IMG/VR virus record: IMGVR_UViG_3300029258_002996
DNA length: 64,000 nucleotides
Reading direction: 5' to 3' (one strand)
DNA from: a virus
The translations under genes and the position numbers were made by a program. The notes beneath the pieces were generated by a model. The model was not told the DNA's origin and did no database searches. It saw only the letters and a program-made list of their open reading frames with translations. Of this stretch, positions 15,018 through 57,709 are shown piece after piece (position 1 is the stretch's first letter; each line of letters begins with the position of its first letter).

Positions 15018-17474
15018 CTACCTCCGGTTCCTCAACACATCGTTATAGTCAAACGGATACTTACCTCCGAAAAATTCGTAAATCTCGTGCTCCTGAATAG
15101 TGCTTCCCGTCCACCCACGCACATTGTTCAGGTTGACTGTAGTGTCGCACGAGCTGTTCCACACAATCGAATGCTGCGCACTCACGAGATTCGCCATGTA
15201 GTTTCTCTCGCGCCAATAAATAGGGCGGTTCACCATCAATCCGAACATCGGAACCGTTCCTATTCCTAGATTTCTCGCTTCCGCATTTGATTTCCTCAAC
15301 ATCAAGGAGGCGAATACTTGAGCGCCCTCCTTGGTGGCCACAGGACACCAAGGCTGGTAGGAAGCGATTCGGAAACCCAAGAGTTGAGCCAACTCCGGAA
15401 CAGTCACGTACACATTCCTTCGAAGCCCTTCGTCGTTGATTTTTGCAAAATTTATCAATAAATTAGGCATCGCGCGACCTACGGTTTTCAATCCCGAATC
15501 GTTCAATGAATTGCTATACCCAGTTGTCTCGTGATGCTCAATGGTAAAGGCGCGAGTGTAGCTGTACTCATCCAAAAGGTCCTGATAGAAAACATCAAAG
15601 CCTTGCTGAGCAACCTCAAGTTTCGTCGGAAGATCCATCATTTCCCTGAAATCACCTTCCGTGTATTTATCGGAATCAGACACCCAGAAATCGAAATACT
15701 TCGTAGTAAGATCCTCAAGCTCTTTTCGAATGCGGTCATTGTAAACACTGGGGTCCTTAGAATCCATAATGTCGACGCTGAAGTCGTAGAAAGGCATCTC
15801 AAATACTACATCGCCTCTCGGAGTGGCGTAGAACCTAAAGTCGATGGCGTCTGCAAGATCGTAAATGAACGACAACCTGTCCTTGAACTCGGAATGCTGA
15901 AGGGCAGTCCCCGCCGTAGACTGATCCAGGATACCCCTGGATACCTTCGGCCCCAAATTGGCAGGGGCTACGTAGTAGACATTTCCGTGACCCACGGGAT
16001 AACGTTCGATGTCAGTACCAATCTGCGTAATGACATCCTCCAGAGTCCAGCCCTTCTCCAAAGAAGGGATCGCGTCGTATTTCAGCATCGTGTCCAAATC
16101 CTCAACCCGAACACGATGATGCAAGAGATCGTTCAGTTCCCTAATATTCGCTATGGGTATCTTCTCCCCGAGAGCCTCGTCAACAGGATTCAGCTCGTCA
16201 CCGATGAAGAGCGCGCGAACGCCTTGCTCAACGGTCTTCCTTTTGAACGGAATCCCACGAGGAGTTGTGATCAACGGAATCGAAGAACCTGGAAAACGAT
16301 CCTGTTTTTCATCCACGAGCCTTTTTTGAAGCTGCTTACGGCGTTCCGCAGGCTGCATCGAGGCAACTTCTTCTTTAGACCGACCAAGAGTATTTAAAAG
16401 ATAGGTATTGATCTCCGAATCGTCCATTGCGCGAATGGTCGCCATCACGGTGTCGTCAAGGATAGGACGAAAATCGTCCAAACCGAAAAACAGGATTTCT
16501 AAAATTTCATAAGGACTGAATCCAGAAAAAATCTCATTGTAAAAATTCGCCTTCAACTCCCCCACGGGACTGTCTCCGAACGGACCCTGGAAAGCCGGGT
16601 TGTTTCGGAAGATTTTTCGAATCGCAGGATCGAGTTGATCCGTATTAGTCTGCAAAAAAGCGTATCGAACGGATTTGGTGACATCCGTTCCGGTAATTGT
16701 GACGGTAGACTCCCGGTTCACGCCTCGATTTTCAGTAAAGGAATCCACAAAACCAGTGAACATCCAATACCAGACGTTCGGACTGAACGGATCCCGAAAG
16801 ACAATGCGAATAGGATCGTTCGGATGGAAAATGCAGTCACCCTCTTGAAATGGGTAAAGATAAATCTGCTTGGACTTTATGTATGGCCAGAGAATCTCAT
16901 CCTTCATCAGGTCGTTAATCGCCCCTTCGCTATCATACAAAACTTGAGGGGCTTTGTTCTGTAGGACGGTGTATTTTATGCCGTCAGGAACTTGAAGATC
17001 TCCGTTATAGTAACCTTCGAAAAAACCACCTGAACTCTTCAAGTTTGAATACACAGAGATAAGGTCTCCAAGATCCTGAAACGCACCGGCCCCCTCCGCA
17101 TCTAGCTGAGAAAGTCTCGACATGAAAGAATCGAAATCGCTGCCGCCCGGATCAATTTCAGTAATCATCTCCACCCAATCTCGGTACGCTTGAATATTTT
17201 CATCAAACCTCCTATCGAGATTTTGCCGAGAAGTTCCTAGAATCAGCATATCGGTGTGGTTCACTATATACTTATCGTTGTAATTCGCTAAAGTGATCGA
17301 ACAAGTGCTCGGAGAGCGATCCTGGCTACCGCCCGACTGATTAACCCGAGCATCAATAACGTCTCCAGAAACCTCCATTCCGTAGATGAAGACACGGAAA
17401 GCTGGAAAAGCCGCTCGATAGATGCCTTCAGCGGCATCTACTCCCGAATATGGATTTTCAAAACCGTCGCCCAT
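15018..17474 (-). CDS. Baseplate hub (gp27/gpD-like)
   Basis: FTGFVDSF...VTITGTD and FRFYATPRGDVVFE motifs, position between tube initiator and spike. Confidence 0.75.
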   Translation of the reverse strand: MGDGFENPYSGVDAAEGIYRAAFPAFRVFIYGMEVSGDVIDARVNQSGGSQDRSPSTCSITLANYNDKYIVNHTDMLILGTSRQNLDRRFDENIQAYRDWVEMITEIDPGGSDFDSFMSRLSQLDAEGAGAFQDLGDLISVYSNLKSSGGFFEGYYNGDLQVPDGIKYTVLQNKAPQVLYDSEGAINDLMKDEILWPYIKSKQIYLYPFQEGDCIFHPNDPIRIVFRDPFSPNVWYWMFTGFVDSFTENRGVNRESTVTITGTDVTKSVRYAFLQTNTDQLDPAIRKIFRNNPAFQGPFGDSPVGELKANFYNEIFSGFSPYEILEILFFGLDDFRPILDDTVMATIRAMDDSEINTYLLNTLGRSKEEVASMQPAERRKQLQKRLVDEKQDRFPGSSIPLITTPRGIPFKRKTVEQGVRALFIGDELNPVDEALGEKIPIANIRELNDLLHHRVRVEDLDTMLKYDAIPSLEKGWTLEDVITQIGTDIERYPVGHGNVYYVAPANLGPKVSRGILDQSTAGTALQHSEFKDRLSFIYDLADAIDFRFYATPRGDVVFEMPFYDFSVDIMDSKDPSVYNDRIRKELEDLTTKYFDFWVSDSDKYTEGDFREMMDLPTKLEVAQQGFDVFYQDLLDEYSYTRAFTIEHHETTGYSNSLNDSGLKTVGRAMPNLLINFAKINDEGLRRNVYVTVPELAQLLGFRIASYQPWCPVATKEGAQVFASLMLRKSNAEARNLGIGTVPMFGLMVNRPIYWRERNYMANLVSAQHSIVWNSSCDTTVNLNNVRGWTGSTIQEHEIYEFFGGKYPFDYNDVLRNRR

Positions 17475-18232: not shown

Positions 18233-21139
18233 CTACCCAGTTCCTTGATCCTTTCCACCCACCATGTATTGAGCGGCAAATTGAGATGCACCGCCCTTCG
18301 CTTCGTCTTCAGGACGCATGACTACGCGAGGAGCCGCTTGACGCGCCTTATAAATTCTTTGGTACTTTCGATTAAGCTGCTGCGCATCCTCGGCTTCTTC
18401 CCCACGGCGCGAATAAACCCGAAGAACCGCCCCCGGAGTATTGCTCGGCAGATTCATCACGTTCACCATGCGATCTCCCTGGGCAAACAACGGTCTCGTC
18501 GGGTCCATACCAGCTTTTACGCTTTGTTTCGCTACGTAGTTTCGTGCGGCATGATAGAAATGAGTGCCGCCTTGCGTCGGATCTTCGACTTCTCCACCGA
18601 GCAATCTTCTAGCCATTCGGAGAGATTCTGGAGAGGCTTCATGAGTGGTTGCGTAGGGCCTTTTCTGACCTTGCTTCCCGTAACCGGCTCCGCGCGTCAA
18701 AATATCGTAAATATCCCCACTCTTGCCCTTCTTCAACTCTTTCTTAACTCGGTTCAACAGAGTCCAGCCAATGACTTCCGCTTCTTCCCCCCACGCCTTG
18801 TGGACGGTTTCCGTCTCCAGCATTCGCGCAAGTGCTTCCACCTCCCGCGCTTGATAATCTTTGTCAAAAATGCCCTTTTCCACCTCAAGAGGTCGGTCCT
18901 CCGGAGCTTCCGCACCAAACACAAAACCGCATCGAGGACAGTTTCCTACGATTCCGACCGTAATATTCCCCTCTTGATCTACACTACTAACTTCCAAATT
19001 GATGCCGCCGCCGACCCAATAATCCGAAGAAAAACCCGGAGATTCTCGACGCTCTTTAGAAACCGGAATCGTGACCTGGGGCATGAAGCGAGTTGGCTGA
19101 GCTGTCGCCAGATCCACCAAAGGCATCGTAACCGGTCGCACGGTAGGCTGACTCGGTTGCCACATACCTCCAGGCAACGCAATCCCTTGTCGTGGAAGTT
19201 CCTGCTCCGGGATCCCCCCTCGCGCAACACCTGCAAAAGACCCCGGAGCAGGCGGAGCGCCCCGGTCTCCCTCCCGCACCGGAGCCGAAGGATCAAATGC
19301 CCACGCGCTCTGGACATTTTTAAGAGAGGACCCGAGAATGTCCATCCCCATGCTCTTCGCAGCAGCAGCCATCTGGTTAACGCCGCGCGACATCTTGTCT
19401 CGATGTTCCCCCTTCATTCCATAGAGATTGTTAATCTTGGACATCAGCTCGACGTTTTTGTCGAAGTCTCCACGGAGAATATTGCTCAAAAAATCTGGAA
19501 TAGATTTGAAGAATGCGATCAGCCATGCGAGTGTTTCGACCGCGAGGCTCAAAAGACCCTGACCAAGTTTCGCAATGCCCTTGTTCCAGATATTCATCAT
19601 GATCTCGAACTGGCTCGTTTTCTTCTGTTCCAACTGAAACGATTTGGCCAAAACCCCCATGCTCTCTTCGGTCGCCTTCGCCGCTTCCACCATCTTGCCC
19701 TCTTTCGCAAGATTGTAGAGCTTGGCCATCGCCCGAGCACCCTCGTATCCGAACTTGGCCTCCAGGAACTCCCGAGCGTAGGTTTCATCACCGCCAGTCG
19801 CGTCGAGAGCAATCTGGAACAGGGTCTTCGCGACTTCCAGGAACCGATTGGTATCCTTTCGATTCAAAGCCCGCTGGAGAGCGTCCTTGAGGCTCTGAGC
19901 GGCTCGAATCCCCTCCCCATGCCCTAGACGCTCCCCAACCAAGATCGCCCAATCATTGCCCATCTGAGCAATCCCAGCGGCGAGCTGCTGCAACCCCTCG
20001 GCAGCAACACGGCCCGCAAACTGCTTCGGAACCCCCATGTCCTCATAAGCCTTCCCCAAAGTCTTGGCAAGATCCATCACATCCCGAATGTTATAACCAA
20101 GACCGGCCAGAGACTCCGCAGCCGCCTCCACGTTTCTCACGAAATAAGGCTGTCCGATGCCCTCCCGACCTTCCATGTAGAGGTCGGTAACAGCTTCCCG
20201 GGCCTCGTCCGTAGTCAACGCATACTTGGCCATGTAGTCAACCATTCGTCGCGCGCTCGTACCTCCGGGAAGCTCAAACATAAGATCCAAGGCGTGAGAA
20301 ACGGTTTGAGTCGTGCTCTCGACCCCTTTCAAGGTGATCCCTACTCGTTGCTCGATTCGTTCGATGGCGACGCCGCCGTCAACGAATGCTTTCGTAACTC
20401 CCTGAGTTTCTGATTTATGGATCCCATAATACTGTTGAAGATGCTCTTGCAGACCGGAAAGATTCCGGGTAGCCGCGCGAGTAGCAGCGTTCAACCCGCC
20501 ATCATACGCCGCGACGAGAATGTTCTGCATCTCGCCCGCTTCGGCACGTACCCGATCTTTGTCGAGAAACCCAGCCTTCATCCAGTTGACGATTCCTGAA
20601 AGTACGCCGCCCGGCAACGGAATCTTCAGACTGCCAAGCATCCCCTTGATGTTGTTCCAAAAAGAGGAAAGCTCGGTATCCATGATGGTCAGCGGGGCGC
20701 GCGCCAGTCCCGTCAATTCTCGCTTCAACCAACTCTTCTTTTCTTTAGATTTATCTTCGTCGGATTTAATTACCCCAGCTTCCTGAGCCATCTGAAGAAG
20801 ATCGACAGCATCTCCTGAGAGTTTTCCAAAGTTTTCGTTGGCCGCGTCCACGGTGGAATCGAGCTTGTCAAAAGATTTTTCCATGTTCTTGGACATGGAG
20901 CTGTATTGCCCCGCTACATTGGCCACATATTGATCGCTCAAGTTTACCAATCGGCTCGCTTTTTTGAACTCCTCACTCCCCACCAAAACGCCCACCGCAG
21001 AACTGAAATGTCCGATAGAGCGGAAAGTTTCATCAAAAAGCTGAGAGTTGGTTTTTGAAAGATCCTCGACCGCGACTCCGAGATCGGTAAACCGCTGCTT
21101 GGCAGCATCGAGCTGAGTTATGTCGACAAAGTCAGCCAT
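18233..21139 (-). CDS. Tape-measure paralogue 3 with C-terminal SleB/Hydrolase_2-like cell-wall hydrolase
   Basis: Helical core homologous to the two upstream genes. C-terminal ALARMLETE...IGWTLLNRV...DPTQGGTHFYH. Confidence 0.8.
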   Translation of the reverse strand: MADFVDITQLDAAKQRFTDLGVAVEDLSKTNSQLFDETFRSIGHFSSAVGVLVGSEEFKKASRLVNLSDQYVANVAGQYSSMSKNMEKSFDKLDSTVDAANENFGKLSGDAVDLLQMAQEAGVIKSDEDKSKEKKSWLKRELTGLARAPLTIMDTELSSFWNNIKGMLGSLKIPLPGGVLSGIVNWMKAGFLDKDRVRAEAGEMQNILVAAYDGGLNAATRAATRNLSGLQEHLQQYYGIHKSETQGVTKAFVDGGVAIERIEQRVGITLKGVESTTQTVSHALDLMFELPGGTSARRMVDYMAKYALTTDEAREAVTDLYMEGREGIGQPYFVRNVEAAAESLAGLGYNIRDVMDLAKTLGKAYEDMGVPKQFAGRVAAEGLQQLAAGIAQMGNDWAILVGERLGHGEGIRAAQSLKDALQRALNRKDTNRFLEVAKTLFQIALDATGGDETYAREFLEAKFGYEGARAMAKLYNLAKEGKMVEAAKATEESMGVLAKSFQLEQKKTSQFEIMMNIWNKGIAKLGQGLLSLAVETLAWLIAFFKSIPDFLSNILRGDFDKNVELMSKINNLYGMKGEHRDKMSRGVNQMAAAAKSMGMDILGSSLKNVQSAWAFDPSAPVREGDRGAPPAPGSFAGVARGGIPEQELPRQGIALPGGMWQPSQPTVRPVTMPLVDLATAQPTRFMPQVTIPVSKERRESPGFSSDYWVGGGINLEVSSVDQEGNITVGIVGNCPRCGFVFGAEAPEDRPLEVEKGIFDKDYQAREVEALARMLETETVHKAWGEEAEVIGWTLLNRVKKELKKGKSGDIYDILTRGAGYGKQGQKRPYATTHEASPESLRMARRLLGGEVEDPTQGGTHFYHAARNYVAKQSVKAGMDPTRPLFAQGDRMVNVMNLPSNTPGAVLRVYSRRGEEAEDAQQLNRKYQRIYKARQAAPRVVMRPEDEAKGGASQFAAQYMVGGKDQGTG

Positions 21140-21142
21140 TTC

Positions 21143-23686
21143 TTAACCCGGGGGTAAAACCTTCTTTCCCGAAACCGCCAAAGAAGCCGGAATAAGACGC
21201 ACCCCGGCATCTCCGGACAAACCCGCCGTAGTATCATCCGAATAGTCGCGCAGAGTGAACTTACCCTCAGTATCCTGCTCTGCTCTTCTCTTCGCTTGCT
21301 CCTTTATATGATCGCGAGTCCGGTCTCGGATGATTTCCCCGTGCGTCCGTCCTTCTCGTTCCACATTGAGAATGCCGGTCTCGTTCAAAACAAAACGTGT
21401 CATCGGAGGAGCGAGGACTTCGAGACCGGGAACGACTTCTCCCATATTCTTCGCAAAACCCAACGCGCTCTCTACCGATTGAGCAGCAGTAGGATCGTAA
21501 GTGCCTGAGATGCGCTCTAGCTCACGACCACCGGGACTCCACCGACGACCGGTGTAGGGATCGATGGCAATTTGATTCATCCAAACCAAATCCCCGCTTT
21601 CCGTTTTCTTTTTCATCCAATCGGGCGCACGTTGAGGAGCGGCTTCACCTCGCATGTATTGTTCGGCAAGCTCTTGAGCCCTTTCCGATTGCTGCAACTC
21701 TTCGGGAGACATCGACGCCAACTTATCCAGATCTTGTTGTCTCGGAGGTTCGTAGTACTTTTGCCTACCAAAAAATAAATTCAAGATAGTCCCCACGGTG
21801 CCAGGAAACATTGCCGAGAGTTTCTGGGACGAATTGTACAAAGAATCCTCAATCTTCTGCCAGTTGGTCCCCATATCACGCCAAATAGAAGAAACCTTTT
21901 CCCACAGACGATCCATCACCAGATCAACCTCACCTGACTTGAACCCGTAGTAAAGAGCTGGGAAAGTTTTTACACCTACGATGAGAAGAGCAACAATATT
22001 GGTAAGGATCCCAAAAAGACCCTCCGAAACACCAGAAATCATATCGATCAATTCACGACGGGTAACATCCAAGGTCGAAACCGCCTCACGCTCACGACCA
22101 AACGCATCTTTCAGGTTCCGAACCTGGCTTTTATCCAGATCGGCCAACTTACCAACTTCACCCAGTTCCTCCGTCAAATCGTGAATCAACGCCGCGTCGC
22201 CAACCGAAACACTTAGAATATCGCTGACCGCCATGATTCTCTGGGCACGGCTTCCTGCCAACTGACGCATCACCACGTTAGAAAAGGCTTTCAAAAGCTT
22301 TTCGAGAAACTCGTCACTACCCCCACCCTCTTTCAAACGACTTAGACCGTCCTTGAACTGCTGCACGAGATCGAGTCCGCGCGCCTGCTCATCCCCCGTA
22401 ATGTCGCGCATCAGCTCGATTTTCAATTTATCTCCGATATTTTGAAATGCCTCCAACAAATTTACAGCCACGCCCACTGCCTGTCGTCCTGCGAATTTTC
22501 GATTGAGACCCATCTCCTCGTAATGATCGGTGATTCGGTTAACCATGACCGCCACGAATTCAACATTGCCGCCGAGCTTTCGAAGCGCATCCTCACTATC
22601 CAAGACGGCTCCAATGAATTTTTCAGTACCGATTCTACTTCGTTGCGCGGCCCCTGCGATTTTCATGTAGGATTTAAGTGCTTCGTGAGCGCCCATCGCG
22701 TAGTTGTGCATAAACTCCACGGCACGCTGCATTGAAGTTCCGTCCGCGACGTGAAAGTGCTTATCGAGCGCCAAGGAAGCTTTCACTACGTTGTCCCCGA
22801 CACCGCCAAGACCTTTGTCAAATTCCTTCAAAAAATCGTCCGCCTCTACTCCGGCATCGACGAGCAGCTTAGCAGTCGCCTGTACATCTTTCCGCGCGAG
22901 TCGATACCGCCACTGAGCGTGTTCTGCGAAGCTGCTCAGGTTACGAACCGCTCGTTGAGTTTTCCCACTCATCAAAGAATCGAAAGAAGATTGAAAAACG
23001 TTCGCCATCTCCCCTAGCTCAGCGCGCTTACGATCTTTCTCCCGGTATCCAATCGAAAGAGCCCCGAACAGCCCGCTGACAAAACCTCCACCGAGCCGGG
23101 AAAGTTTATCGGGGAGCTTCTTTAACAAATCTCCGATTCCTTCGTAAGCTTTCAAAACAGCAGCTTCAATTTTACTGGTGGCTTCCCGAGATTCCTTCGC
23201 GGCTTCCTTTCGAACGCCAAACACACCTTCGGAAGCTTTCATAGTTTCCTTGAAAGTCCCTTTGACCTCTTCTTTTGCGCTCTTCATGTCACGCTCGGCC
23301 ATGCCAATCGCAGACTCTACCGATTGATGTTGCGGATCCTGCGGCGACGGTTTTTTCTTGAAAACTTTATCGAGCTTCACCTCTTTCATTGTCGCAAGGT
23401 TTTCTACGATCCGCCTCGCCTCCCGTTGTTGAGCCTCCAGATAAAAAGCGATGCGCCCCTGGTCGGCGGCTCCGAGTGGGGCGGGCTCCGGGAGACTTGC
23501 CAAAGCGGATGATATCGGCAAATCCATCCCCAACGTTAAATCGTAAAACGAAGACACATCCTGAGCGGTGCCGACCGCGATGTCCTGAACGGTCGCTCCA
23601 AATTCGGTATAGGAACGTTGAAGATTCGCAACCTGACTTTGCAAACCAGTAAGATCAAGTTCTACCTTTGGTATTTCCTCAGCCAT
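21143..23686 (-). CDS. Tape-measure paralogue 2
   Basis: Ala/Leu/Glu-rich helical protein sharing GEM, EHAQW and ALD.H motifs with its neighbours. Confidence 0.7.
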   Translation of the reverse strand: MAEEIPKVELDLTGLQSQVANLQRSYTEFGATVQDIAVGTAQDVSSFYDLTLGMDLPISSALASLPEPAPLGAADQGRIAFYLEAQQREARRIVENLATMKEVKLDKVFKKKPSPQDPQHQSVESAIGMAERDMKSAKEEVKGTFKETMKASEGVFGVRKEAAKESREATSKIEAAVLKAYEGIGDLLKKLPDKLSRLGGGFVSGLFGALSIGYREKDRKRAELGEMANVFQSSFDSLMSGKTQRAVRNLSSFAEHAQWRYRLARKDVQATAKLLVDAGVEADDFLKEFDKGLGGVGDNVVKASLALDKHFHVADGTSMQRAVEFMHNYAMGAHEALKSYMKIAGAAQRSRIGTEKFIGAVLDSEDALRKLGGNVEFVAVMVNRITDHYEEMGLNRKFAGRQAVGVAVNLLEAFQNIGDKLKIELMRDITGDEQARGLDLVQQFKDGLSRLKEGGGSDEFLEKLLKAFSNVVMRQLAGSRAQRIMAVSDILSVSVGDAALIHDLTEELGEVGKLADLDKSQVRNLKDAFGREREAVSTLDVTRRELIDMISGVSEGLFGILTNIVALLIVGVKTFPALYYGFKSGEVDLVMDRLWEKVSSIWRDMGTNWQKIEDSLYNSSQKLSAMFPGTVGTILNLFFGRQKYYEPPRQQDLDKLASMSPEELQQSERAQELAEQYMRGEAAPQRAPDWMKKKTESGDLVWMNQIAIDPYTGRRWSPGGRELERISGTYDPTAAQSVESALGFAKNMGEVVPGLEVLAPPMTRFVLNETGILNVEREGRTHGEIIRDRTRDHIKEQAKRRAEQDTEGKFTLRDYSDDTTAGLSGDAGVRLIPASLAVSGKKVLPPG

Positions 23687-26004
23687 TAATCTGACGGTGG
23701 AAGTGTCCGCTCCTTGTGTTTGATATCCGCCTGGGCGATTGCTTCAGAAGATATGACCACTTCGGCACGCCGAGGGTTTGCCATGATTTCGCGCTCTTTG
23801 GCGTTGGCTAACGGTTCTGGCTTGGCCCGCTCTTGGTCACGCACTGCCTTGACTTCGGAACCGCGAGGCATTCCAGGATGCTTCGGAGGCGGTTCGCTTT
23901 CTTCCGTAGCCGAGTCCGGAGGAGCTACCGCAGGGGGTTCCGGGGTCGCAGACTCGGGGATCCGTTTACCTACGGTCCCCGCAGCTCCGGTCGCAAGCCC
24001 TTTCGCCGCTCTCCAGGCACCTTTGAACAGTTCAATTGGGCTTCCGGACGTACCGCGACCCACAACTCTCGGAGTCGTCGGCTGATCTTCCCTACGAGGT
24101 CCTTCAAGGTTTCCACTCGCAGCTCGTTTCAATATATCCAGCGGACCGCCTAGAGCCTCTGAGACTGATCCCGGAACTTCTTCCAGCCCTTCCATTGCCT
24201 GGACGACTCCCTCCCCCAAAGTTCCGACGAGCATTTTCATCTCGTCACCGATCTTCGTCAGCTCCCGATTCCCCTCTTCCCCTCCCCTTAAAGTAGCGCT
24301 GATAAGACGAGGCAACGAAGTGATGCCTACCGTCAGGATAGCCAAAATTGAAGTCAAAACCTTCAAAAGACCGTTCCCAACCCCAGCCAAAGCGTTGATA
24401 AGCTTCCTTTCCGTCTGTTCCAACGTGGAAACCGCTTTTCTATTGATCTCGAACGCCTGCTGAACTGCGCGCTTCTGTTCCGGAGCAAGCTTTTGAAAAT
24501 CGTTGTACTTCTTGAGTTCCTCCCGCGCATCCAGCAACGTAGCTGCTGTCTGGGTCTGCATGCCTTGGTTTTCCAAAAACAAGATAGCTTCGGAACGACC
24601 ACGACCCTCCAGAGCCCACGCGGTAAGGTGCATGGTCGCTTCGACAAGGAAACCTTCGTCCTCACCGCGAGCAGCTCGGGCAGCCCCCTCCTCGTACTTT
24701 ACGAATGCTGCATGCGCCTCCATGCCAGGGAACATCCGACGCGCTAGCTCAAGCTTGGAACTACTGCCAAGGTTGGCTACGGCGCCCGTGTAGTTATCTA
24801 CAAACCGAGCTGCCATTTCCCCAGCATGCTGCGGATGGAGTCCCATTCGGCGATAGTGCCGCTCGATATTCACCATAATGTTCGCAACATCACGAACGTC
24901 GATACCGTATTGCTGCATCGCCGAAGCACCGGACATCACCGCGTTGATGAACTTGTCGATTCCGGCCCCGCTGCGCTGCGCAGCCATCCCGAAACCGATG
25001 TAATCCTTAGTCGCCTTCTCCAACGTGTCACCGTAGTCAGAAACCAAGGTAATCACGTTTGACATCGCAGTACCCTGAGCCCTGTGGAGATGGGCATCCA
25101 GCGCCATTGTGGCAACTACGGCATTCTGACCAACGTACCCCAAGTCTTCGCTAATTCTTTTTTCGAAATCCTCGCGTCGATATCCAGCTTGCGCCATCTG
25201 ACTGACAACGCCCTGCGTTTCTTCCTTGCTGATCCCGTAAAACCACTGAGCGTGTTCTTGAAAAGCACTGAACCATCCAATGGTTTTTTCGAGAGACCCC
25301 GGGCCTGAAAGTCGCTCACCGGTAGCTTCCAGTACGTTGGCCATTTCCCCGCGTTGCGCGGTGAGGCGCGCGTCCTCTTTCCTACCCAAAATCATCCAGT
25401 TGATGAGCGTGCCGATGACTCCCCCACCGACCCCTGGAATGTTACTCAAGAGACTTCCAAGAGACTGTTTCAGCCCCTTCAATTCACTTTCCGCGTACTG
25501 TAAGAGTTGCGCAACACCTTTTTTGAACACTTCCAGCTCGTCTTTCAACGTGCGCTTCATCTCTTTGTGCTGCTGCTCGACTTCGGACATCGTGGCACGC
25601 GCCACATCCGCCATCTCCAGGACTGCCTTGATTTCTTTCGAGACGCGCTGAAGCTCCGGAGGAGTCCCGACGCCTGCTTCGCCGCCAACCTGGATCCCAG
25701 ACAAGCGACTCATGTTGGCGGCTACGGTTTCGCTCTGCCTAGAAAGATTTTCAAGATTTCGGACCGTGGAGCCCATGCCTCGCTGAATCGATTGAGCCGA
25801 TTGATCCAGTTGCGGAATCATGGTTTGCAGAGAGGCTGAAACTCCTTCTGTGGATTGTCTGAGAGCTTGCGTATCGGTGGTCGCAGCGTTCACTACCTCA
25901 CGCACTGCCATGCCGAAATCGGTATAGTCCCGCGTCAGCTCGTTGATCTGATTATCGAACTCAGAAAAATCAAACGAAAGCAGATAGTCTTTGGCAACCG
26001 CCAT
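23686..26004 (-). CDS. Tape-measure paralogue 1
   Basis: Immediately downstream of the frameshifted chaperone, the canonical tape-measure position. Shares motifs with the next two genes. Confidence 0.75.
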   Translation of the reverse strand: MAVAKDYLLSFDFSEFDNQINELTRDYTDFGMAVREVVNAATTDTQALRQSTEGVSASLQTMIPQLDQSAQSIQRGMGSTVRNLENLSRQSETVAANMSRLSGIQVGGEAGVGTPPELQRVSKEIKAVLEMADVARATMSEVEQQHKEMKRTLKDELEVFKKGVAQLLQYAESELKGLKQSLGSLLSNIPGVGGGVIGTLINWMILGRKEDARLTAQRGEMANVLEATGERLSGPGSLEKTIGWFSAFQEHAQWFYGISKEETQGVVSQMAQAGYRREDFEKRISEDLGYVGQNAVVATMALDAHLHRAQGTAMSNVITLVSDYGDTLEKATKDYIGFGMAAQRSGAGIDKFINAVMSGASAMQQYGIDVRDVANIMVNIERHYRRMGLHPQHAGEMAARFVDNYTGAVANLGSSSKLELARRMFPGMEAHAAFVKYEEGAARAARGEDEGFLVEATMHLTAWALEGRGRSEAILFLENQGMQTQTAATLLDAREELKKYNDFQKLAPEQKRAVQQAFEINRKAVSTLEQTERKLINALAGVGNGLLKVLTSILAILTVGITSLPRLISATLRGGEEGNRELTKIGDEMKMLVGTLGEGVVQAMEGLEEVPGSVSEALGGPLDILKRAASGNLEGPRREDQPTTPRVVGRGTSGSPIELFKGAWRAAKGLATGAAGTVGKRIPESATPEPPAVAPPDSATEESEPPPKHPGMPRGSEVKAVRDQERAKPEPLANAKEREIMANPRRAEVVISSEAIAQADIKHKERTLPPSD

Positions 26005-26005
26005 T

Positions 26006-26830
26006 TCAGTCCGTTTCGATTACAACGCGGCTTCGCTTGCGCTTCGCCGGAATTTCATCCAAGGAACCTTCGGATTCGATCCTCACGGGGATCTCCTCGG
26101 TTTCTCCTACATCTTTCTTTCGTTTCGCCTCCTCGCGAAGCTCTCTTCTAGCTTGTCCGATGGTTCGGGCTCTTCTCGGCATCAGATCAATCTGCTCGGC
26201 ATCGAGATCTTCCTTCGACACCACGAGACTCTCCAGCATCTTCTGCATCATGGGATCCCCCCAAGAAAGAGATTCCTGAAGCTCGTCAGGCTCGTTATCA
26301 AATTGGATATCACCTTCAGCCATGAAGGCTTCTAACTCTTCAGGAGTCAACTCCGGTTCCGATTCTCGGTCGGTTACAAATTCGGAGCCTTCGACTTCGA
26401 GATCCTGACGGACTTGTTCTTGGGTATGGTACTCCCCTTGCTTTTTGAGGATTCCAGCCACTACGTCCTCGCGACCCATTCCCAGCATCAACGGGAGATA
26501 CTCACCTTCCTGCGGCAAGCGCAGTAGTCCCGTATGAGGGTCCTCGACCGGCATCAAGTTGACCCCGAGAACGGAAATAACCTCGTCTCGAACCGCATCC
26601 ATGATGGCCTTCATCTCGTCGTATCTGCGCTCCTCGTTCCTCTGAATCGCAGCGTCTTCGAACGCCCACTGCGTTTCATTCATGTTCCTCAACCGAGGAT
26701 CCCCTATCGGGATGTTTCGCTGCGTCAAGATCTGCGCCTTGATCTGCAAATGCGAAACTATTTTTCTCCAGAAGGGGAAAGTTCGGTCCCAGAGGGGTCG
26801 ATACCCTCGTCCGAACTCTCCCCGGAGGAT
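26006..26830 (-). CDS. Tail assembly chaperone -1 frameshift extension (gpT-like part of a ~429-aa gpGT-type fusion)
   Basis: Overlaps the upstream chaperone in the -1 frame and is entered at A AAA AAA, giving ...ALKK-ILRGEFG. Confidence 0.8.
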   Translation of the reverse strand: MLRGEFGRGYRPLWDRTFPFWRKIVSHLQIKAQILTQRNIPIGDPRLRNMNETQWAFEDAAIQRNEERRYDEMKAIMDAVRDEVISVLGVNLMPVEDPHTGLLRLPQEGEYLPLMLGMGREDVVAGILKKQGEYHTQEQVRQDLEVEGSEFVTDRESEPELTPEELEAFMAEGDIQFDNEPDELQESLSWGDPMMQKMLESLVVSKEDLDAEQIDLMPRRARTIGQARRELREEAKRKKDVGETEEIPVRIESEGSLDEIPAKRKRSRVVIETD

Positions 26831-27294
26831 TTTTTTAACGCATCCTGAGCGTTCGACCTGCGGTCCTCCATCCTCTGCCACTCATCCCACAAGTCCGAAA
26901 TGACTTCTGGAAAACGGTCCGCGAGGAACTTCATCAGGTGTTCCGCCGTGAAGTACTTCGCAGAGTACGGCCCCTTTCCCTCCACGATCTCAAGCGCCCT
27001 CCGGCTCTCCTCGGTTGCGTCCCATTCCTCTCGAAAGAATTCGAAAACGGGAGTGCCGTTGATCTGTCGAATTCCGATTGCCAACGTAGGGAGCCGCCAC
27101 GAGCTAACGGCGCTCAGCTTCGAGCCGAGATTGATGTAGCCGTTTCTCCAGTTCGACTCCTCTTCGTTGAGCAGCCGCATCTTGAACTCGAAGCCTTTCA
27201 CGTTGCAGGTGTGCTCGATGGTCTCGCCGTCCAGTTCCTTGGCAAGATCCATCAGGACTTGTTTCGGATTTACGTTTTTCTGTTCGGTAGACAT
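26758..27294 (-). CDS. Tail assembly chaperone (gpG-like)
   Basis: Lies between tube and tape-measure genes and carries the slippery site near its 3' end. Confidence 0.85.
   Translation of the reverse strand: MSTEQKNVNPKQVLMDLAKELDGETIEHTCNVKGFEFKMRLLNEEESNWRNGYINLGSKLSAVSSWRLPTLAIGIRQINGTPVFEFFREEWDATEESRRALEIVEGKGPYSAKYFTAEHLMKFLADRFPEVISDLWDEWQRMEDRRSNAQDALKKSSGESSDEGIDPSGTELSPSGEK
26774..26836 (-). promoter_or_regulatory. Programmed -1 ribosomal frameshift signal
   Basis: Slippery A AAA AAA (26836-26830), 6-nt spacer, then a 13-bp stem GGGGAGAGTTCGG/CCGAACTTTCCCC with an inner GAGGG/CCCTC stem. Confidence 0.88.
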
Positions 27295-27339: not shown

Positions 27340-27945
27340 TTAAATAGGTCTAACTTTTGTATAGTTCAGTGTTGCGTTCACCATCACTATTCGGTCGCCC
27401 TGCGCTGACAAATTACGACCGATCTGAGAAAACCAGCATCCCGAATACCACCACTTTTCAACCTCAAAATCTCCGGTGCCGGTCTCTATCTTTTCGATTT
27501 TTTCATCGGTAAGTCCGACGAAATTCAAAGCCTTGATCTGCCCTTCTCCTATTTTGTCAACCACGTCAGAAGTTTTATTGCCCAATTTGTCCAGCCAAGG
27601 AAAGGACCATTTGATACCGACATCCCCCACATAGCGGATCCACTTCTCCTCCACGTCGAAAGGGTTGTGCTGGTTCGTGAGCATCCAGTAGGCATTCGGG
27701 TTTCCCCACACCTCCTCCATTTTCGCCCTATACAGATCGTATCGGGAAACTTGGATGGTGAGGTTCGTAGCCGTCGCGGGAACTTGCTCAAGGGGGTTAC
27801 CTACTCCGACTGCGTCGATCTCGTACAGAGGAGCCACTCCGCGAGATTGACTCGGAGCCCAGGTCTGGATCTGACCGATGGTGTAACCGCCAGCTCGAAT
27901 GGATACGGCATGACTGGTACGAACCGTAGTTTCCGGGACTGGCAT
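27340..27945 (-). CDS. Tail tube paralogue with ~50-aa insertion
   Basis: Shares IGQIQTWAP, LTIQVSRYDL and GCWFSQIGRNL.AQGDRIVMVNATLNY with the upstream gene. Confidence 0.85.
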   Translation of the reverse strand: MPVPETTVRTSHAVSIRAGGYTIGQIQTWAPSQSRGVAPLYEIDAVGVGNPLEQVPATATNLTIQVSRYDLYRAKMEEVWGNPNAYWMLTNQHNPFDVEEKWIRYVGDVGIKWSFPWLDKLGNKTSDVVDKIGEGQIKALNFVGLTDEKIEKIETGTGDFEVEKWWYSGCWFSQIGRNLSAQGDRIVMVNATLNYTKVRPI

Positions 27946-27949
27946 TTCG

Positions 27950-28402
27950 TTATGCGGTCTGTTTGATCCGCACGTAGTTGAGAGTCGCGTTCACCATCAC
28001 GATTCGATCACCCTGCGCTTGCAGGTTTCTACCGATCTGGGAAAACCAGCACCCTATGTACTCATATTTCTCAGGAGACCCGCTAGGATTCACCCACTTC
28101 TCCGTAATAGTGAGGGGGTTCGACTGTCGAGAGAGCATATTGAGGTCCGGGTTCCCCCAAATCTCCTCCATCTTCGCAGAAAACAAATCATAGCGACTAA
28201 CCTGAATCGTAAGACCGGTGATGTTCCCGGGTACGTTCTCAGTCACTTCGCCAGAAGTCTGCGCCTTCAACTCATATGCAGGTGTGATCGTCCGGGACTG
28301 GTTTGGAGCCCACGTTTGGATCTGTCCAATAACGTATGAATTGTACTGGATGGTGACCGCATGGCTCGTCCGAATGTTTGTTGCCGGAATTGGGAATGTC
28401 AT
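27950..28402 (-). CDS. Major tail tube protein
   Basis: 150 aa, directly after the sheath, Y.GCWF motif, strong GGAGGAGG Shine-Dalgarno. Confidence 0.88.
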   Translation of the reverse strand: MTFPIPATNIRTSHAVTIQYNSYVIGQIQTWAPNQSRTITPAYELKAQTSGEVTENVPGNITGLTIQVSRYDLFSAKMEEIWGNPDLNMLSRQSNPLTITEKWVNPSGSPEKYEYIGCWFSQIGRNLQAQGDRIVMVNATLNYVRIKQTA

Positions 28403-28427: not shown

Positions 28428-30914
28428 TTACGCGGGGCTGAAGAAGGGGTTGTCGACGCTGTACTCGCCGAAGAATCGTTTCGCCGGGTAACGCAAGTTA
28501 AACCAGTACTTGAAGTAGAAGTTCCTCGGGTCCGTGGTGCTTTGCGCCACCTGAATGTCAGTCAGCGCATCGATTTCTCGCGGGAAGCCCGCCTGATCTC
28601 GGTACGGTCCAATCGAACCGGCGTTGATGTTCGCTTCGATTCCGAGAAGAATCCACTTCTTCGTATCGGAAATAAAGTCCGCCAGATCATCCGGAACCAC
28701 CCCGACCATGTTCGCAGTGAGAAGATTCTCCACCGTCTTGGAAACCGCGTCCTTCTGGGCGGAAGCCGCAGGCTCCTCGAACTGAACCACTCCGCCGCCA
28801 CCGGCTTCCGTGGTAAGCGGGTCGAGCATGACGAATCGACCTGCCTGGAGCGTGATAACAGTGACTCCCTGACTGGCCATCGTATGACGCTCGCCGCGCA
28901 AGAAGGTGCTGAAACCGTCTTCCTCGAAGCCGGTGATGGTCTTGTTGATGAGCGGGCTCGCGGGGCTCGGAAGCGCCGTGAACACCGAAGCCACCGCAGC
29001 CGCGATGTAGGAACCGTCGAGGTCCACACTGACTTCCTGACCGCTGTCCAACGTCAGGGTTCTCGTAGCGTTGCCACCGGCGACCAGGATCTGACGACCA
29101 CGTCCCGGGGAAGTCGCGCCCGGCTGCAAGGTCTGAGTCGACCTGTACACGAAGGTATCCGGCGTGTCGGGATCGCCAGGATCCGTGTCCCGAGCCATCC
29201 CATACCAGCCGCGCCGATAGTGTTTCTCCAAAATTGAAGACTGGGTAGAGACGTGATTCATCAGGTAGACCGCAATCTCCTGAGAAGTATCGAGCACGAC
29301 CACGTCCGTTATCTGCGCAGTCTCCTCGCAGACATCGATTGCGCGACGGATCTGGTTCAACGTGGGCTGACCCTCAACCGTCTGATCGTTGACTTGGACC
29401 ACGAAAATCGAAGGAGTGGCATTTTCGAATGCGATCTCTCCAGCCACACAGAGGGCGTTTCTCGTGTAGTTGTCCAGCGTCAATGGAGACGTGTACTCGT
29501 AGAGCTGATCCGGGTCGTAGCACCGATGGTAAGTTTCGTAATCGGCGGAAGGTCGCTGGTAGTCGTAGGTTGCGTAGTAGCCAGTCCCAAAATCAGGACG
29601 TTCTCCGACGCCACGGACCTCGTAAGGCAACGTAATCGCGCCGAACAACGTCGCAAAAGCATTGTCCGAAGTATCCAGGAAATCGAAGGAGCTGGCCGCA
29701 CCCTTCTCGGTCGGGAAGTTTTCGAACGGATCCGGAACATCGAGCTTGACCGCGCCGCCAGAATCTGATGCCACATGCGCATACTCGGGACCGTAATCCG
29801 CCGAAGCCGCCAACGCCGTATTGATGTCGGTGGCTATATTCGCTGCGGTTTGAGCAGCGCCAGCGGTCAACGTGATCAGAATCGGGGAATTGTCGTTGAT
29901 CGCCAGGTAGAGCTTATCGTTCGTGCTCGCAACGATGGCGTAGGGACCTGCAATACCGGTGATCGTCGAATTCGCCCATGTCGAGGAACTCCACTCGATA
30001 TTGTTACCGCTCGCCTGGTAGTCCACACTCTTCTCGTAGCTGCTGCCCCCAGGATACGAGCTGACACGAGCCAAGTTGACCAGCGGATCGGTCGCGGTGG
30101 CATTGGCCAAGGGATCAGTCAATCCGTCAATCGCCACGTAGTCGAGCGTGTAGACCGCAGTAGAGTTGTACGCTTCGTCGCGCACCTGAATCCAACTGTC
30201 CGCCTGAACGCCCGCAGACGCCGTGGGAACCCACGCAGCGTTCGAAATCAGCGACGCACCGTCCGCCGTCCGAGACAGAAGAACCTTTACGTCCGAAGCG
30301 GACGTGCTATCCGGAGACGTAATCGTGATGATCTCGTTTGCGGTACCCGTCGCGTGAGTCGCCACGTTCGCATAGGCCGCGCCGTACTTGCTGTAGTAAG
30401 TACCTGCGCTGTTACCCAGCTCGTAGTTGATGGCGTCACAGATGTTGGTCGCCGAAGCCGTCGCCGGAGTACCACCGACAGCAGTCACCGCCGCATCCAT
30501 GTCGATAGTGACTACATCCTTGCCGTCGAGGGACAGCGTGAAGTACCGGTCGGTGCCCGTACCGCTCGAAACGTCGATAGTCGCACCAGCCCACTCGTTG
30601 CCCGTCAAATACGCGGGCAGGAACCACCAATCCGCGATCCCTAAAGAGTTTCCATTCATGTAGAGAGTCGCGTTGTTCCTGTCTCGATTCGACATGTTCA
30701 CGAGCTGCGCGATATACGGGGTCGAAGCCGCGAGCGACAAAGTCTCCGCGAAAATCTTGCCGCGAACTACGGGCTCGTCCGTGGAACGACGGGTGCGCGG
30801 AGCGATTCCCACAATCGCGAGAACGCGATCCGAGGTGACAGACACGGAACCTGGCTGAATTACTTCTCCAATGTAGGTTCCGGGATCAACATATCGGGAA
30901 ATCTCAATAGCCAT
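28428..30914 (-). CDS. Tail sheath protein
   Basis: N-terminal YVDPGTYIGE, C-terminal DPRNFYFKYWFNLRYPAK, position before the tube. Confidence 0.9.
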   Translation of the reverse strand: MAIEISRYVDPGTYIGEVIQPGSVSVTSDRVLAIVGIAPRTRRSTDEPVVRGKIFAETLSLAASTPYIAQLVNMSNRDRNNATLYMNGNSLGIADWWFLPAYLTGNEWAGATIDVSSGTGTDRYFTLSLDGKDVVTIDMDAAVTAVGGTPATASATNICDAINYELGNSAGTYYSKYGAAYANVATHATGTANEIITITSPDSTSASDVKVLLSRTADGASLISNAAWVPTASAGVQADSWIQVRDEAYNSTAVYTLDYVAIDGLTDPLANATATDPLVNLARVSSYPGGSSYEKSVDYQASGNNIEWSSSTWANSTITGIAGPYAIVASTNDKLYLAINDNSPILITLTAGAAQTAANIATDINTALAASADYGPEYAHVASDSGGAVKLDVPDPFENFPTEKGAASSFDFLDTSDNAFATLFGAITLPYEVRGVGERPDFGTGYYATYDYQRPSADYETYHRCYDPDQLYEYTSPLTLDNYTRNALCVAGEIAFENATPSIFVVQVNDQTVEGQPTLNQIRRAIDVCEETAQITDVVVLDTSQEIAVYLMNHVSTQSSILEKHYRRGWYGMARDTDPGDPDTPDTFVYRSTQTLQPGATSPGRGRQILVAGGNATRTLTLDSGQEVSVDLDGSYIAAAVASVFTALPSPASPLINKTITGFEEDGFSTFLRGERHTMASQGVTVITLQAGRFVMLDPLTTEAGGGGVVQFEEPAASAQKDAVSKTVENLLTANMVGVVPDDLADFISDTKKWILLGIEANINAGSIGPYRDQAGFPREIDALTDIQVAQSTTDPRNFYFKYWFNLRYPAKRFFGEYSVDNPFFSPA

Positions 30915-38792: not shown

Positions 38793-40067
38793 CTACTTCG
38801 AGCCCTTGGCGCACGCACGCGCGTTCGGGATCACGAATCCGATCATCTCGACAAAGGCCCAGCCTTTCACCGTCTCCTGCTGCGCGTACTTGTTGTACGG
38901 CTCGGAGAACAGCTCGATCCTGACGCCCATCTCGCCCATGTATTCGGCTCCGGTCGTCGCGTAGAAGGTCCCTGCCGGGATCACTTCCTCGACACCGGTA
39001 CCGGCTGCGGTGAGGATCTGCGCGTTCAAGATATTGCCGATGTAACCGGCCAGGATCAGCTCACGCTCGGTGACCGGATCCACCGCAGCCGACATCGTCT
39101 TCACGACATCGGACAGCTCGGCACGAGAGATCAGGAAGTTCTCGACCATCAGACGATGGCGCTCGACCTGATACCGGACATCCTCGAAAGCGTTCAGGCC
39201 AAGAGAACCGAACGTGGTCACGGTATTCTCGGTCTGGGCAGCCTCGTCGATGATGGCGATACCGGCCTTGTCCTCCTGAAGCTCGATCTCCTGCCGCGCG
39301 GTGTCCTGAGCACGATCCAAGACATCGAAGTTCATCTGATAGATGTCCATGATGTCGATGGACGGGAAGCTCGTCACCTTCCACTCGGGCGGGGTGACCC
39401 ACTTCGTCTTGATCCTCGACTCGGGGGTCTGCCCGTCTTGGCCAACCACCCAGGCGACCGAACGGATATCCAGCGGCACGCGGAACAGCTCGGCCTGGGC
39501 CAGCTTGCGTACACGATAGATCTTCCGGGAGAAGCCTTCGTAGTCGAGAATCGCCTTGATCGGGAGCGCCAGCTCCTGACCGACGATGTGGAAGCCCTGA
39601 CCCGAGGGATCCTGGAGAGCCGCCGCCAAGATGTCCCGACGCGCTTCCTTCGAGATGCCCGACTCCGTGTCCGGACGGTAGAAGGAGAGCGCGTTGGCGT
39701 TCTGCTTCACCGTCTCGTTCAGGAGCTGATGCACCTGCGTCATCGCGTCGCGACGGTCGATGGCGTTGACCTCGCCTCTCGAATCAAACATGCGGCGATC
39801 CGAACGTCCGCGAGTCGCGTGGCGGCTCGACGGATGATCGTAACGCTGCGGGTTGAAGGTACCGTCGCCCTGGAACAGGGTTTCGTCCTTCTTCGATCCG
39901 AACCGACTCCTCGGACGTGCAGCGAGTCTGCGCCGCTCGTCCTTCGGAGCTTCTTTCCGAGCCTGTCGGGGAGCGGGACGCTTACCCCGGGTAGGCTCAC
40001 CTCGCCGAGCTGCCTTGGTGGGCACGGGACGGCGCTTCTTGGAAATCCTTTTGTACGGATTATTCAT
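38793..40067 (-). CDS. Major capsid protein (HK97 fold) with Arg-rich N-terminal extension
   Basis: GQELALPIKAILDYEGFSRK...QEIELQED...GWAFVEMIGFVIPN, downstream of protease, scaffold and decoration genes. Confidence 0.9.
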   Translation of the reverse strand: MNNPYKRISKKRRPVPTKAARRGEPTRGKRPAPRQARKEAPKDERRRLAARPRSRFGSKKDETLFQGDGTFNPQRYDHPSSRHATRGRSDRRMFDSRGEVNAIDRRDAMTQVHQLLNETVKQNANALSFYRPDTESGISKEARRDILAAALQDPSGQGFHIVGQELALPIKAILDYEGFSRKIYRVRKLAQAELFRVPLDIRSVAWVVGQDGQTPESRIKTKWVTPPEWKVTSFPSIDIMDIYQMNFDVLDRAQDTARQEIELQEDKAGIAIIDEAAQTENTVTTFGSLGLNAFEDVRYQVERHRLMVENFLISRAELSDVVKTMSAAVDPVTERELILAGYIGNILNAQILTAAGTGVEEVIPAGTFYATTGAEYMGEMGVRIELFSEPYNKYAQQETVKGWAFVEMIGFVIPNARACAKGSK

Positions 40068-53802: not shown

Positions 53803-53833
53803 CGCCGTCCTCCCTAAGCCGAACTACCCCAGA

Positions 53834-56800: not shown

Positions 56801-57709
56801 ATCGGAAGGAGTATCGTCGAAAACGAAACCTTGGTTCTCGTAGACACTGCTACCACCCGCAATCAGTACAGCGTCCCCGTTCACGGGAGCAGTGAACGAC
56901 CAGGAATTACCCGTAGCGTCGTAAACACCGAAACTGAACTCCTCCCCAGCGAAAGAGCCCGCAGCTCCGGAATCGATGACGAGTACCCGGGTTCCATCGG
57001 GCGGCTCCCCACCGGAGTTAGCAACGATGACGACCCAAGCGGAGCCGCTCCACTCCACGATGTCTCCGTCAGTCTCGTTCAGCCAGTTGTTGACCAACCA
57101 AGCCTCGCCGGTTTCCCCTGCGGTAGGATCTGCACCTGACTGATCAGCGTCACTCTTGATCTTCAAGACATCAACCGGATCCTTCCAGGTCAGTCCGTTA
57201 ATAGCGTTGTCGAGCTGGTTCTTGTTGACCGCATCGGTTCCGTCTGTACCAGCCGCCACATTGATGATCTTGTTAGACCCGAGATCCAGGTTGCAGCCAG
57301 AGATCTGCACAACACCCTTGTTTACGTGGGAAGTCGATTGCAGAACCAGATCATCCGAATCTCCAGTACCTCCGATGAGAGTCTGGCCACCCGCGCGACC
57401 GGCGAGCTTCGCATAATCCGTCAGATCCGGCATCATGTTCTCGTTCAATAGTCCGCTTCCGTCGAGCTTCACCGGACTATCGGCAGTCGAGGTCGTGACA
57501 AAGTCCGAGTCGCTGTAGACATCCGTCCATGCACCGTCACGTCTCAGACGAATTCGATCATTCGTAGTGTCGTAGTATTGAATGCCGTCTGATAATGACC
57601 AGCCAGCATCCGTGACAATTGCGGTTTCCGCCGCAGAGTCACTGCCCGAGTTCGCGTACCGCCCCATAAACACATGCTGGTTATAGGGGGCTGTGGTTAC
57701 TAGTGCCAT
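53834..57709 (-). CDS. 1291-aa fibre protein with YadA-stalk-like motif and beta repeats
   Basis: KIINVAAGTDGTDAVNKNQL, repeated SAGTG...NA.AGG and INEFSIDGTM...DAVPTEKAV. Confidence 0.75.
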   Translation of the reverse strand: MALVTTAPYNQHVFMGRYANSGSDSAAETAIVTDAGWSLSDGIQYYDTTNDRIRLRRDGAWTDVYSDSDFVTTSTADSPVKLDGSGLLNENMMPDLTDYAKLAGRAGGQTLIGGTGDSDDLVLQSTSHVNKGVVQISGCNLDLGSNKIINVAAGTDGTDAVNKNQLDNAINGLTWKDPVDVLKIKSDADQSGADPTAGETGEAWLVNNWLNETDGDIVEWSGSAWVVIVANSGGEPPDGTRVLVIDSGAAGSFAGEEFSFGVYDATGNSWSFTAPVNGDAVLIAGGSSVYENQGFVFDDTPSDAWVQFAGSTLYTGGTGIDITGSVVSIDDWSLDAAYDNLGSGAGRVITVDSGAVEFTGSNASDYTVEVTNSANGGALFVNNSGSGNTIDLQDSGSSVFTISGAAALTTTSLASANFTTSGTFEVNASTNFSIEGATSSDVTVAGSGQTLTLEASGGGANQVIVQSAGTGTEAANPAIYLNATAGGVNISAALASSFTVASGDLTLEATSGDVDIISAASNIDFILGSTSIAAVTDEKSGTYSGENVVDVKSYMVSDWATDETLPLLEIIQTPTSAPVSQKMINLEAAGSNWSADFSQAIVYGKAPNGVAVLQIADTSGKLETSVGTITGATSSIQGVAFDRDDVTVQNGVIWTIGGVSGANIEFMIVNVDDDALETNQDSRLDILATESVLPVLCLVNYNSTEARAGFGNDNPVCTIDMSPGTGSALTHSNIDMRVNYKTEWDDEVYHDDRAYFADGAAGTPSIAFHGDTGTNTGLYLPAQGTVGVSADGSLIASFAAAEIDFSNITAFDVNASGAITLDGGASSNLTVTEDTADTDVTLTLKSENNGTPSGATNHSTLALVSYGAATDADAEGWITFDDQALQDATNWANPMKVSEYNASNEWDALYTALGNTEMTLVAAITYAITTGTNLWQVVANQLTPIATYSTVGLDINATGTNAITLDAQEDSNFTVTGSAKTLTLEAAGGSTNQVILQSAGTGVNALYLNASAGGVDIDASGGVTVDAGGAVSIAAASASDFTVSNSANLTLAVTGGSVQQLILNSAGTGNIDTTPAMDINATAGGIDIDAAGKSAFTVTGADLKLETVTSGTVDINSAASVTIDATDVTIDATNSLSFDAAADSNYTLTQATTDTGLTLTLFVDNNGSGASDSTLILRADESGSGTASIAHTINGTTEGTWTSSGLALKAGTSINEFSIDGTMAGNSDDAVPTEKAVVTYVGSYAPQVHTNAGNPEGVVTGAVGDICVDTTNTIVYIKASGAGNTGWSVAA

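Follow-up and report, generated by a model that had tools for sequence, protein, structure and literature searches.

The stretch of DNA analysed here (the window), 64,000 nucleotides of the IMG/VR record IMGVR_UViG_3300029258_002996, is the structural module of a roughly 180-kb uncultured contractile-tailed phage (myovirus). Tape-measure proteins (TMPs) are the textbook molecular ruler, the product of a single gene that acts as a homo-oligomer. In the window, the tape-measure slot is occupied by three consecutive genes on the minus strand, here called A, B, and C, which are very probably three tape-measure paralogues. The genes and their parts, with lengths in amino acids (aa), are as follows.

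23686..26004, minus strand: paralogue A, short type, 772 aa (open reading frame, ORF; PHROG_167, E 6e-6), made up of an N-terminal motif, a coiled-coil region, a Gly-rich hydrophobic stretch, a conserved helical core, a hydrophobic helix, and a Pro/Gly-rich tail
24301..24369, minus strand: hydrophobic transmembrane-like helix of A, residues 546–568 (Kyte-Doolittle 19-residue window, maximum 2.03)
21143..23686, minus strand: paralogue B, second short type, 847 aa (ORF; AF2 model; tree)
21941..22018, minus strand: hydrophobic transmembrane-like helix of B, residues 557–582 (Kyte-Doolittle maximum 2.06)
18233..21139, minus strand: paralogue C, long type, 968 aa, with a predicted C-terminal peptidoglycan hydrolase (ORF)
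19499..19567, minus strand: hydrophobic transmembrane-like helix of C, residues 525–547 (Kyte-Doolittle maximum 1.72)
18905..19027, minus strand: beta-rich segment of C, residues about 705–745, with the conserved motif WxGG...GNCPxCG (invariant in the C-type alignment A4; model strands 714–741)
18470..18886, minus strand: predicted SleB-like (Hydrolase_2) cell-wall hydrolase domain of C, residues about 752–890 (VIA-align and homologue P0062)

All three pairs are clearly similar in BLASTP comparisons: A and B at E 2e-65 (29% identity, 576 columns), A and C at E 9e-38 (25%), and B and C at E 1e-34 (24%), and this identity of 24–29% spans about 570–600 residues in each protein. The three are collinear from residue 1 to the hydrophobic helix near residue 530–580. 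An earlier reading of the sequence alone (the sequence-only reading) had described three paralogues aligning from their N-termini; the comparisons bear this out, and the motifs it listed were all found in A, B, and C. Its further claim of unrelated C-termini holds as well, including the Pro-rich end of A and the hydrolase of C. The C-termini are indeed mutually unrelated, being Pro/Gly-rich in A, SleB-like in C, and without an assignable domain in B, where an Atlas search with the C-terminal 208 residues returned sub-threshold leads, all below 0.9. Two simpler accounts of the array were considered and rejected: A, B, and C are not pieces of one split TMP, since each copy is complete, and they are not recent or decaying duplicates, since each type forms a deep, conserved clade.

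Tape-measure genes are typically marked by a tail assembly chaperone that is expressed as G and, through a −1 frameshift, as a GT fusion. Such a pair lies directly upstream of A, and genes resembling a tube initiator and a baseplate hub lie downstream of C.

26758..27294, minus strand: tail assembly chaperone, G-like ORF, 178 aa, overlapping the next ORF, which is in its −1 frame
26830..26836, minus strand: −1 slippery heptamer A_AAA_AAA in the zero frame of G (read in the sequence)
26006..26830, minus strand: T-frame extension (−1 frame ORF), giving a predicted GT fusion of about 429 aa
17474..18226, minus strand: tube-initiator-like protein, 250 aa, directly after C (PF23980, weak, E 0.003; 43% identity to an orthologue in the lineage L039, described below)
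15018..17474, minus strand: hub-like baseplate protein, 818 aa (assigned by position; orthologous to the 793-aa gene after the L039 array, E 3e-67)

Family searches with the 818-aa protein gave no match. The G/GT pair upstream of copy A is kept in all 16 loci examined, and in 15 of 15 two- and three-copy relatives an in-register heptamer (A_AAA_AAA, A_AAA_AAC, A_AAA_AAG, or G_GGA_AAC) precedes the stop codon of G by 49–97 nt; the single-copy phage Rctr197k has a weaker candidate, C_CCT_TTA, at 67 nt. With the chaperone pair and heptamer on one side and the initiator-like and hub-like genes on the other, the assignment of this locus to the tape-measure slot, proposed from the letters alone, is supported. 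The T part of GT measures about 276–291 aa in all six triplet genomes versus 226–248 aa in doublet and singlet genomes, so that a longer chaperone accompanies the extra tape-measure copy, a correlation that is confounded with phylogeny.

The genes of the block are tightly packed. The T frame ends 1 nt ahead of the ATG of A (TGAaATG), the start of B overlaps the stop of A by 1 nt (TAATG), and a 3-nt gap separates the stop of B from the start of C (TAAgaaATG). These junctions fit coupled translation.

Sequence similarity of A, B, and C to curated TMP families is weak. PHROG_167, 'tail length tape measure', matches A and B (E 6e-6 and 4e-6, respectively) and does not match C, and no Pfam TMP family scores above its cutoff for any of the three; the second copy of lineage L039 has a weak match to PF10145 (21.4 bits vs. 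a cutoff of 33.2). The AF2 model of B, compared with BFVD by Foldseek, has 54 matches at E ≤ 1e-3 (the best at 3.5e-7), nearly all of them annotated as tape-measure or minor tail proteins, at low TM-scores of 0.2–0.3 and with predicted models on both sides. The models of B and C are helical from residue about 7 to about 610–640, with a core (residues about 200–640) of many short helices predicted at pLDDT above 90, and each copy has one strong hydrophobic helix (Kyte-Doolittle maximum 1.7–2.1). A Foldseek search of the C model against the PDB gave no match at E ≤ 1e-3, only helical-repeat look-alikes, and PDB sequence searches with C-type and A-type profiles returned only generic coiled-coil or designed-helix matches.

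The canonical TMPs (lambda gpH, T4 gp29, TP901-1 TMP, A-1(L) gp13; PF10145, TP901-type core) share with the window proteins the slot after the G/GT chaperone, the helical character, the hydrophobic segments, and a predicted similarity of fold, and the length of about 700–970 residues is that expected for a myovirus tail of about 100–140 nm. They differ in being encoded by one gene rather than by two or three full-length paralogous genes, and the core is here predicted as short-helix repeats. In the cryo-EM structure of A-1(L), a TMP of about 689 aa forms a small homo-oligomer in the lumen of the tube, in a tail of 104.5 nm (PMC10966104). By this calibration, each single copy in the window already fits an ordinary myovirus tail.

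The copy number of this family varies. An exhaustive profile search collected 375 cluster representatives, which fall into size classes of about 740–850 aa and about 870–1045 aa. Among viral contigs we identified six distinct triplet genomes, about ten doublet genomes, and the single-copy lineages Rctr197k and L038. The gene order is always one short copy, a second short copy where present, and a final long copy with the hydrolase. Complete genomes with terminal repeats (DTR) include triplets of 188.6 and 212 kb and doublets of 170 and 158 kb, and none of them carries a further paralogue elsewhere. A triplet conserved in related genomes, which the sequence-only reading had proposed to look for, is not what the family displays, as relatives carry 1, 2, or 3 copies.

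At E ≤ 1e-5, tblastn with A against 50,697 phage records was without a match. Scanning viral contigs with a single protein gave no relatives, and the family profile did not detect a homologue in PaBG, RSL1, AD1, or PhiXhv-12, cultured jumbo phages with distantly related capsid proteins. A pattern scan of GTDB genomes revealed no prophage copy, and a scan of metagenome contigs yielded two short fragments only. Rctr197k (KX853510.1) comes from the phage lineage of the window, with 61% identity in the capsid protein and 42% in the sheath, and its gene Rctr197k_071 occupies the same slot, has a homologous core (hhalign probability 98.5), and retains the 331-residue block between the GEM motif and the hydrophobic helix; it differs in being one gene, of 669 aa, without a hydrolase. 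This gene (L001:8063-10072, equivalent to KX853510.1 78062-80071) is annotated as a misc_feature, 'similar to hypothetical protein', and is in fact an intact, GTG-initiated ORF of 669 codons, the single-copy tape-measure homologue.

In the maximum-likelihood tree of genome-resolved copies, the C clade has a support of 99 and the joint A and B clade a support of 95. B forms a group with support 100, which has the A copies from triplet genomes (support 96) as its sister and falls within the A copies from doublet genomes; B thus arose once, by duplication of A. The subtrees of A, B, and C share their branching order, with the window branching first in all three, and the three copies have diverged in parallel since the duplication that produced B. 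Orthologues are 41% (A), 35% (B), and 42% (C) identical, versus 23–34% for co-resident paralogues, and this greater similarity of orthologues implies that no gene conversion has taken place. B is the fastest-evolving copy, and C has the core with the highest orthologue identity (53.5%). The paralogues are co-retained and non-redundant, and have not been homogenised.

A second triplet is found in L039, a lineage seen on 19 contigs, with paralogues of 781, 787, and 959 aa (L039:2856-13621). Here, the orthologue of the 250-aa initiator-like gene of the window (43% identity) lies between copies 1 and 2, and the long copies bear CHAP instead of SleB-like domains. The L039 copies fall outside the C clade (SH-aLRT 90), which, together with the position of the initiator gene, suggests independent duplications at a different position. 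The L039 triplet is thus probably of independent origin, a case of convergence.

The last, long copy of each array always carries a wall hydrolase, and the hydrolase is confined to that copy. For C of the window, the assignment is a prediction from models and homologues. Among the top rows of VIA-align for C, the sole non-helical matches are 4f55_A (Z 9.1, rmsd 4.3, 109/128 residues) and 4fet_A (Z 8.9, rmsd 3.2, 103/122 residues). The homologue P0062 passes PF07486 (35.9 bits vs. a cutoff of 27), and the matching region aligns to C with 35% identity at E 2e-37; C itself has no match to PF07486 at E ≤ 0.01. In A4, an alignment of 12 C-type sequences from the lineage of the window, acidic residues are conserved within an ARM..E motif. 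The C-terminus of C is predicted to be a SleB-like peptidoglycan hydrolase. The type of enzyme varies among relatives (Hydrolase_2, M23, M15, CHAP, and a weak SLT match), and it has been swapped even among close ones, namely, the C-type proteins P0045, P0057, P0059, P0062, P0133, and P0137 (Hydrolase_2, Peptidase_M23, Peptidase_M15, CHAP). The invariant WxGG...GNCPxCG segment that precedes the swapped enzyme may be an adaptor for whichever enzyme is attached.

The distance from the GEM motif to the hydrophobic GL(L/F) segment is exactly 326, 331, and 326 residues in A, B, and C, and the sequence-only reading had taken this near-identity as a sign of three matched rulers. We measured landmark distances in 39 family proteins from 17 loci. 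The distance from GEM to the hydrophobic helix is 315–338 residues in all 39, mostly 326–333, and in the single-copy gene of Rctr197k it is 331. Since it is constant throughout the family, the single-copy relative included, it reflects a conserved, nearly indel-free domain and not length matching within a genome. Hence the numbers were right, whereas the inference of equal rulers goes no further than what homology gives. The sole variable part is the N-terminal coiled-coil segment. In 13 genomes the lengths of the N-terminal parts of A and C add up to a roughly constant sum, about 363–398 residues; this inverse relation may be an effect of two clades, or a hint at a shared fixed space.

What, then, do two or three full-length copies do in one phage? 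The best reading in our view, held with moderate confidence, is a mixed tape measure within one tail. A, B, and C in triplet genomes, or A and C in doublet genomes, would be loaded together into one tail lumen as a mixed oligomer that replaces the usual three identical chains. G and GT would chaperone A, B, and C before they are loaded into the lumen; contraction of the sheath would expel the chains, with C opening a path through the peptidoglycan and the hydrophobic helices contributing to a membrane conduit. The stoichiometry, and which of the chains sets the tail length, we infer as part of the same reading. The fixed gene order, the tight junctions, the ancient co-retention, and the lack of gene conversion fit a joint, non-redundant use in one tail. 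B and C keep every part of a TMP, including the extreme N-terminal motif, and under the mixed-oligomer model an extra copy need not alter the length of the tail. A hetero-oligomer of side-by-side chains had been suggested by the sequence-only reading; of its grounds, the tape-measure paralogues in the slot and the distinct C-termini stand, and the argument from near-identical ruler length falls.

We tentatively entertain a stronger version, in which the hetero-oligomer is obligate. Throughout a wide group of large environmental myoviruses, the three positions in the lumen would be taken by distinct co-evolving paralogues (ABC, or A and C at 2:1 or 1:2), breaking the three-fold symmetry and providing exactly one hydrolase per tail along with specialised membrane-inserting chains, and such a complex would have evolved at least twice, in the lineages of the window and of L039.

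Several points weigh against a mixed oligomer. Firstly, the evidence for binding among the chains and for the presence of all of them in virions is indirect only; a complex prediction with the cores A 192–520, B 198–531, and C 175–503, run with alignments, scored 0.00 and gives no answer either way. Secondly, doublet genomes would need a 2:1 stoichiometry, which is, to our knowledge, without precedent. Thirdly, the core is predicted as an array of short helices, not as one long coiled coil, and three such cores would have to fit into a lumen of roughly 4 nm. Fourthly, the N-terminal lengths of A and C are negatively correlated (r = −0.66, n = 13 genomes, not phylogenetically corrected), where lengths co-varying among relatives had been anticipated; this comes close to the independent length variation that the sequence-only reading had named as evidence to the contrary. 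The hydrophobic helix comes later in A than in C by 4–21 residues in triplet genomes and by 29–57 in doublet genomes. Such unmatched lengths of co-resident A and C could be absorbed by staggered or hairpinned chains. Finally, the published interpretation of a tandem pair in Staphylococcus jumbo phages is 'TMP plus tail lysin' and does not invoke a heteromer (bioRxiv 10.1101/2020.12.14.422802; PMC10638138).

This last precedent leads to the foremost alternative, in which there is one ruler with cargo derived from it. A single paralogue, most likely A, would be the homo-oligomeric ruler that sets tail length, and C, along with B where present, would be tail lysins or ejection proteins held in the hub or the lumen at a lower or different copy number. 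The annotation of the Staphylococcus pair as 'tape measure protein' and 'tail lysin' speaks for it, as do the restriction of the enzyme to C, the unmatched N-terminal lengths of A and C, and the single-copy Rctr197k and L038, where one chain type can suffice. On the other hand, B and C keep the N-terminal motif, all of the 330-residue core, and the hydrophobic helix, none of which a hub-bound lysin would need; C also has the most conserved of the three cores (the 53.5% given above), and the tight same-strand junctions suggest similar expression. On balance, we consider this arrangement somewhat unlikely, and retain the mixed tape measure as the better account.

It is very improbable that the chains are used end to end, in series, so that tail length would follow from all three added together, about 2,590 residues or about 390 nm at 1.5 Å per residue, and copy number would tune it stepwise. 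The variation of copy number in whole units (1, 2, 3) among relatives agrees with this, and nothing else does. Each copy has its own N-terminal motif, hydrophobic helix, and C-terminal tail, and so is a complete TMP rather than a segment; at 1.5 Å per residue each alone gives an ordinary myovirus tail length, and one duplication would at a stroke change the tail by about 115 nm. In L039, moreover, the tube-initiator gene stands between the copies, and we know of no head-to-tail contact between TMPs. Just as improbable are alternative tails, also raised by the sequence-only reading, in which sub-populations of virions use different paralogues with different penetration functions or host ranges: the C-termini do differ, but the copies form one packed block on the same strand, in which stop and start codons overlap or nearly abut and no switch or invertible element was seen, the hub and initiator genes are single-copy, and all copies have long been retained in every genome of the clade.

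Among known systems, T5 pb2 and the Tmp of mycobacteriophage TM4 (PMC1796659), tape measures whose muralytic domains are embedded or C-terminal, resemble C in that a wall-degrading module rides on the tape measure and leaves the tail first, the module being SleB-like in C and M23, M15, or CHAP in its relatives. There, however, the enzyme is present on every chain of the oligomer, whereas here it is on one paralogous chain only. Partial precedents for tandem genes come from Staphylococcus jumbo phages, where Korn et al. drew attention to tandem "tape measure / tail lysin" pairs. The 'two potential tape measure proteins' described for MarsHill, Madawaska, Machias, and vB_SauM-UFV_DC4 are a TMP and a tail lysin of about 1,960–1,990 aa each; in vB_SauM-UFV_DC4 a 1,962-aa tail lysozyme adjoins a 1,990-aa TMP with an M23 domain (bioRxiv 10.1101/2020.12.14.422802; PMC10638138). 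These are likewise tandem, helical, TMP-like genes with transmembrane segments and peptidoglycan-hydrolase domains in a large myovirus, and their mechanism was left unexplained. They differ from the arrays reported here in being two giant genes, both of which may carry enzymes, as opposed to two or three ordinary-sized copies in the strict order of short, (short), and long with enzyme. The two systems have no detectable sequence relation in the tblastn search with A mentioned above, and are analogous, not homologous at that sensitivity.

Literature on two, duplicated, or heteromeric tape measures contained, as far as we found, no paper proposing or showing a heteromeric one; it yielded only internal repeats, chaperone pairs, the intron-split TMP of ICP1, and heterotrimers of the baseplate wedge. 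Thus, tandem TMP-like pairs were already on record, without an explanation, and what is new is a broad uncultured clade with two or three ordinary-sized, full-length copies, a strict gene order, a resolved duplication history, a probable convergence, and an asymmetry in which a single copy has the enzyme. Two or three full-length copies that a widespread group of phages has kept for so long, only one of them with an enzyme, suggest that the complex in the lumen can be asymmetric, its chains sharing out the tasks of ruler, wall cutter, and membrane conduit. Confirmation of this would alter the reading of tail lumen densities in cryo-EM, where symmetry is usually imposed, as well as the annotation of TMP genes and the prediction of tail length from gene length in metagenomes. 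The idea also gives a concrete account, open to test, of the still puzzling 'two tape measure proteins' of Staphylococcus jumbo phages.

The remaining structural genes identified in the window include the following, along with a Baseplate_J wedge protein.

27340..28402, minus strand: a tandem pair of tube-like genes (150 and 201 aa), each matching phrog_985
28428..30914, minus strand: sheath-like protein, 828 aa (in tblastn, Rctr197k_065 is 42% identical and the annotated tail sheath of Bacillus phage G 26%)
38793-40067: major capsid protein
45335-47173: portal

In a relative, genes of 148 aa and 162 aa stand at the position of the tube-like genes, and the 148-aa counterpart has a weak match to Phi812_tail_tube; this lineage may thus have a duplicated tube protein as well. 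Two very large genes (48307-57709, minus strand) upstream of the portal region encode proteins of 1,831 aa, with DUF2793, and 1,291 aa, with a YadA-stalk repeat, which resemble fibre or adhesin proteins and are located apart from the baseplate genes.

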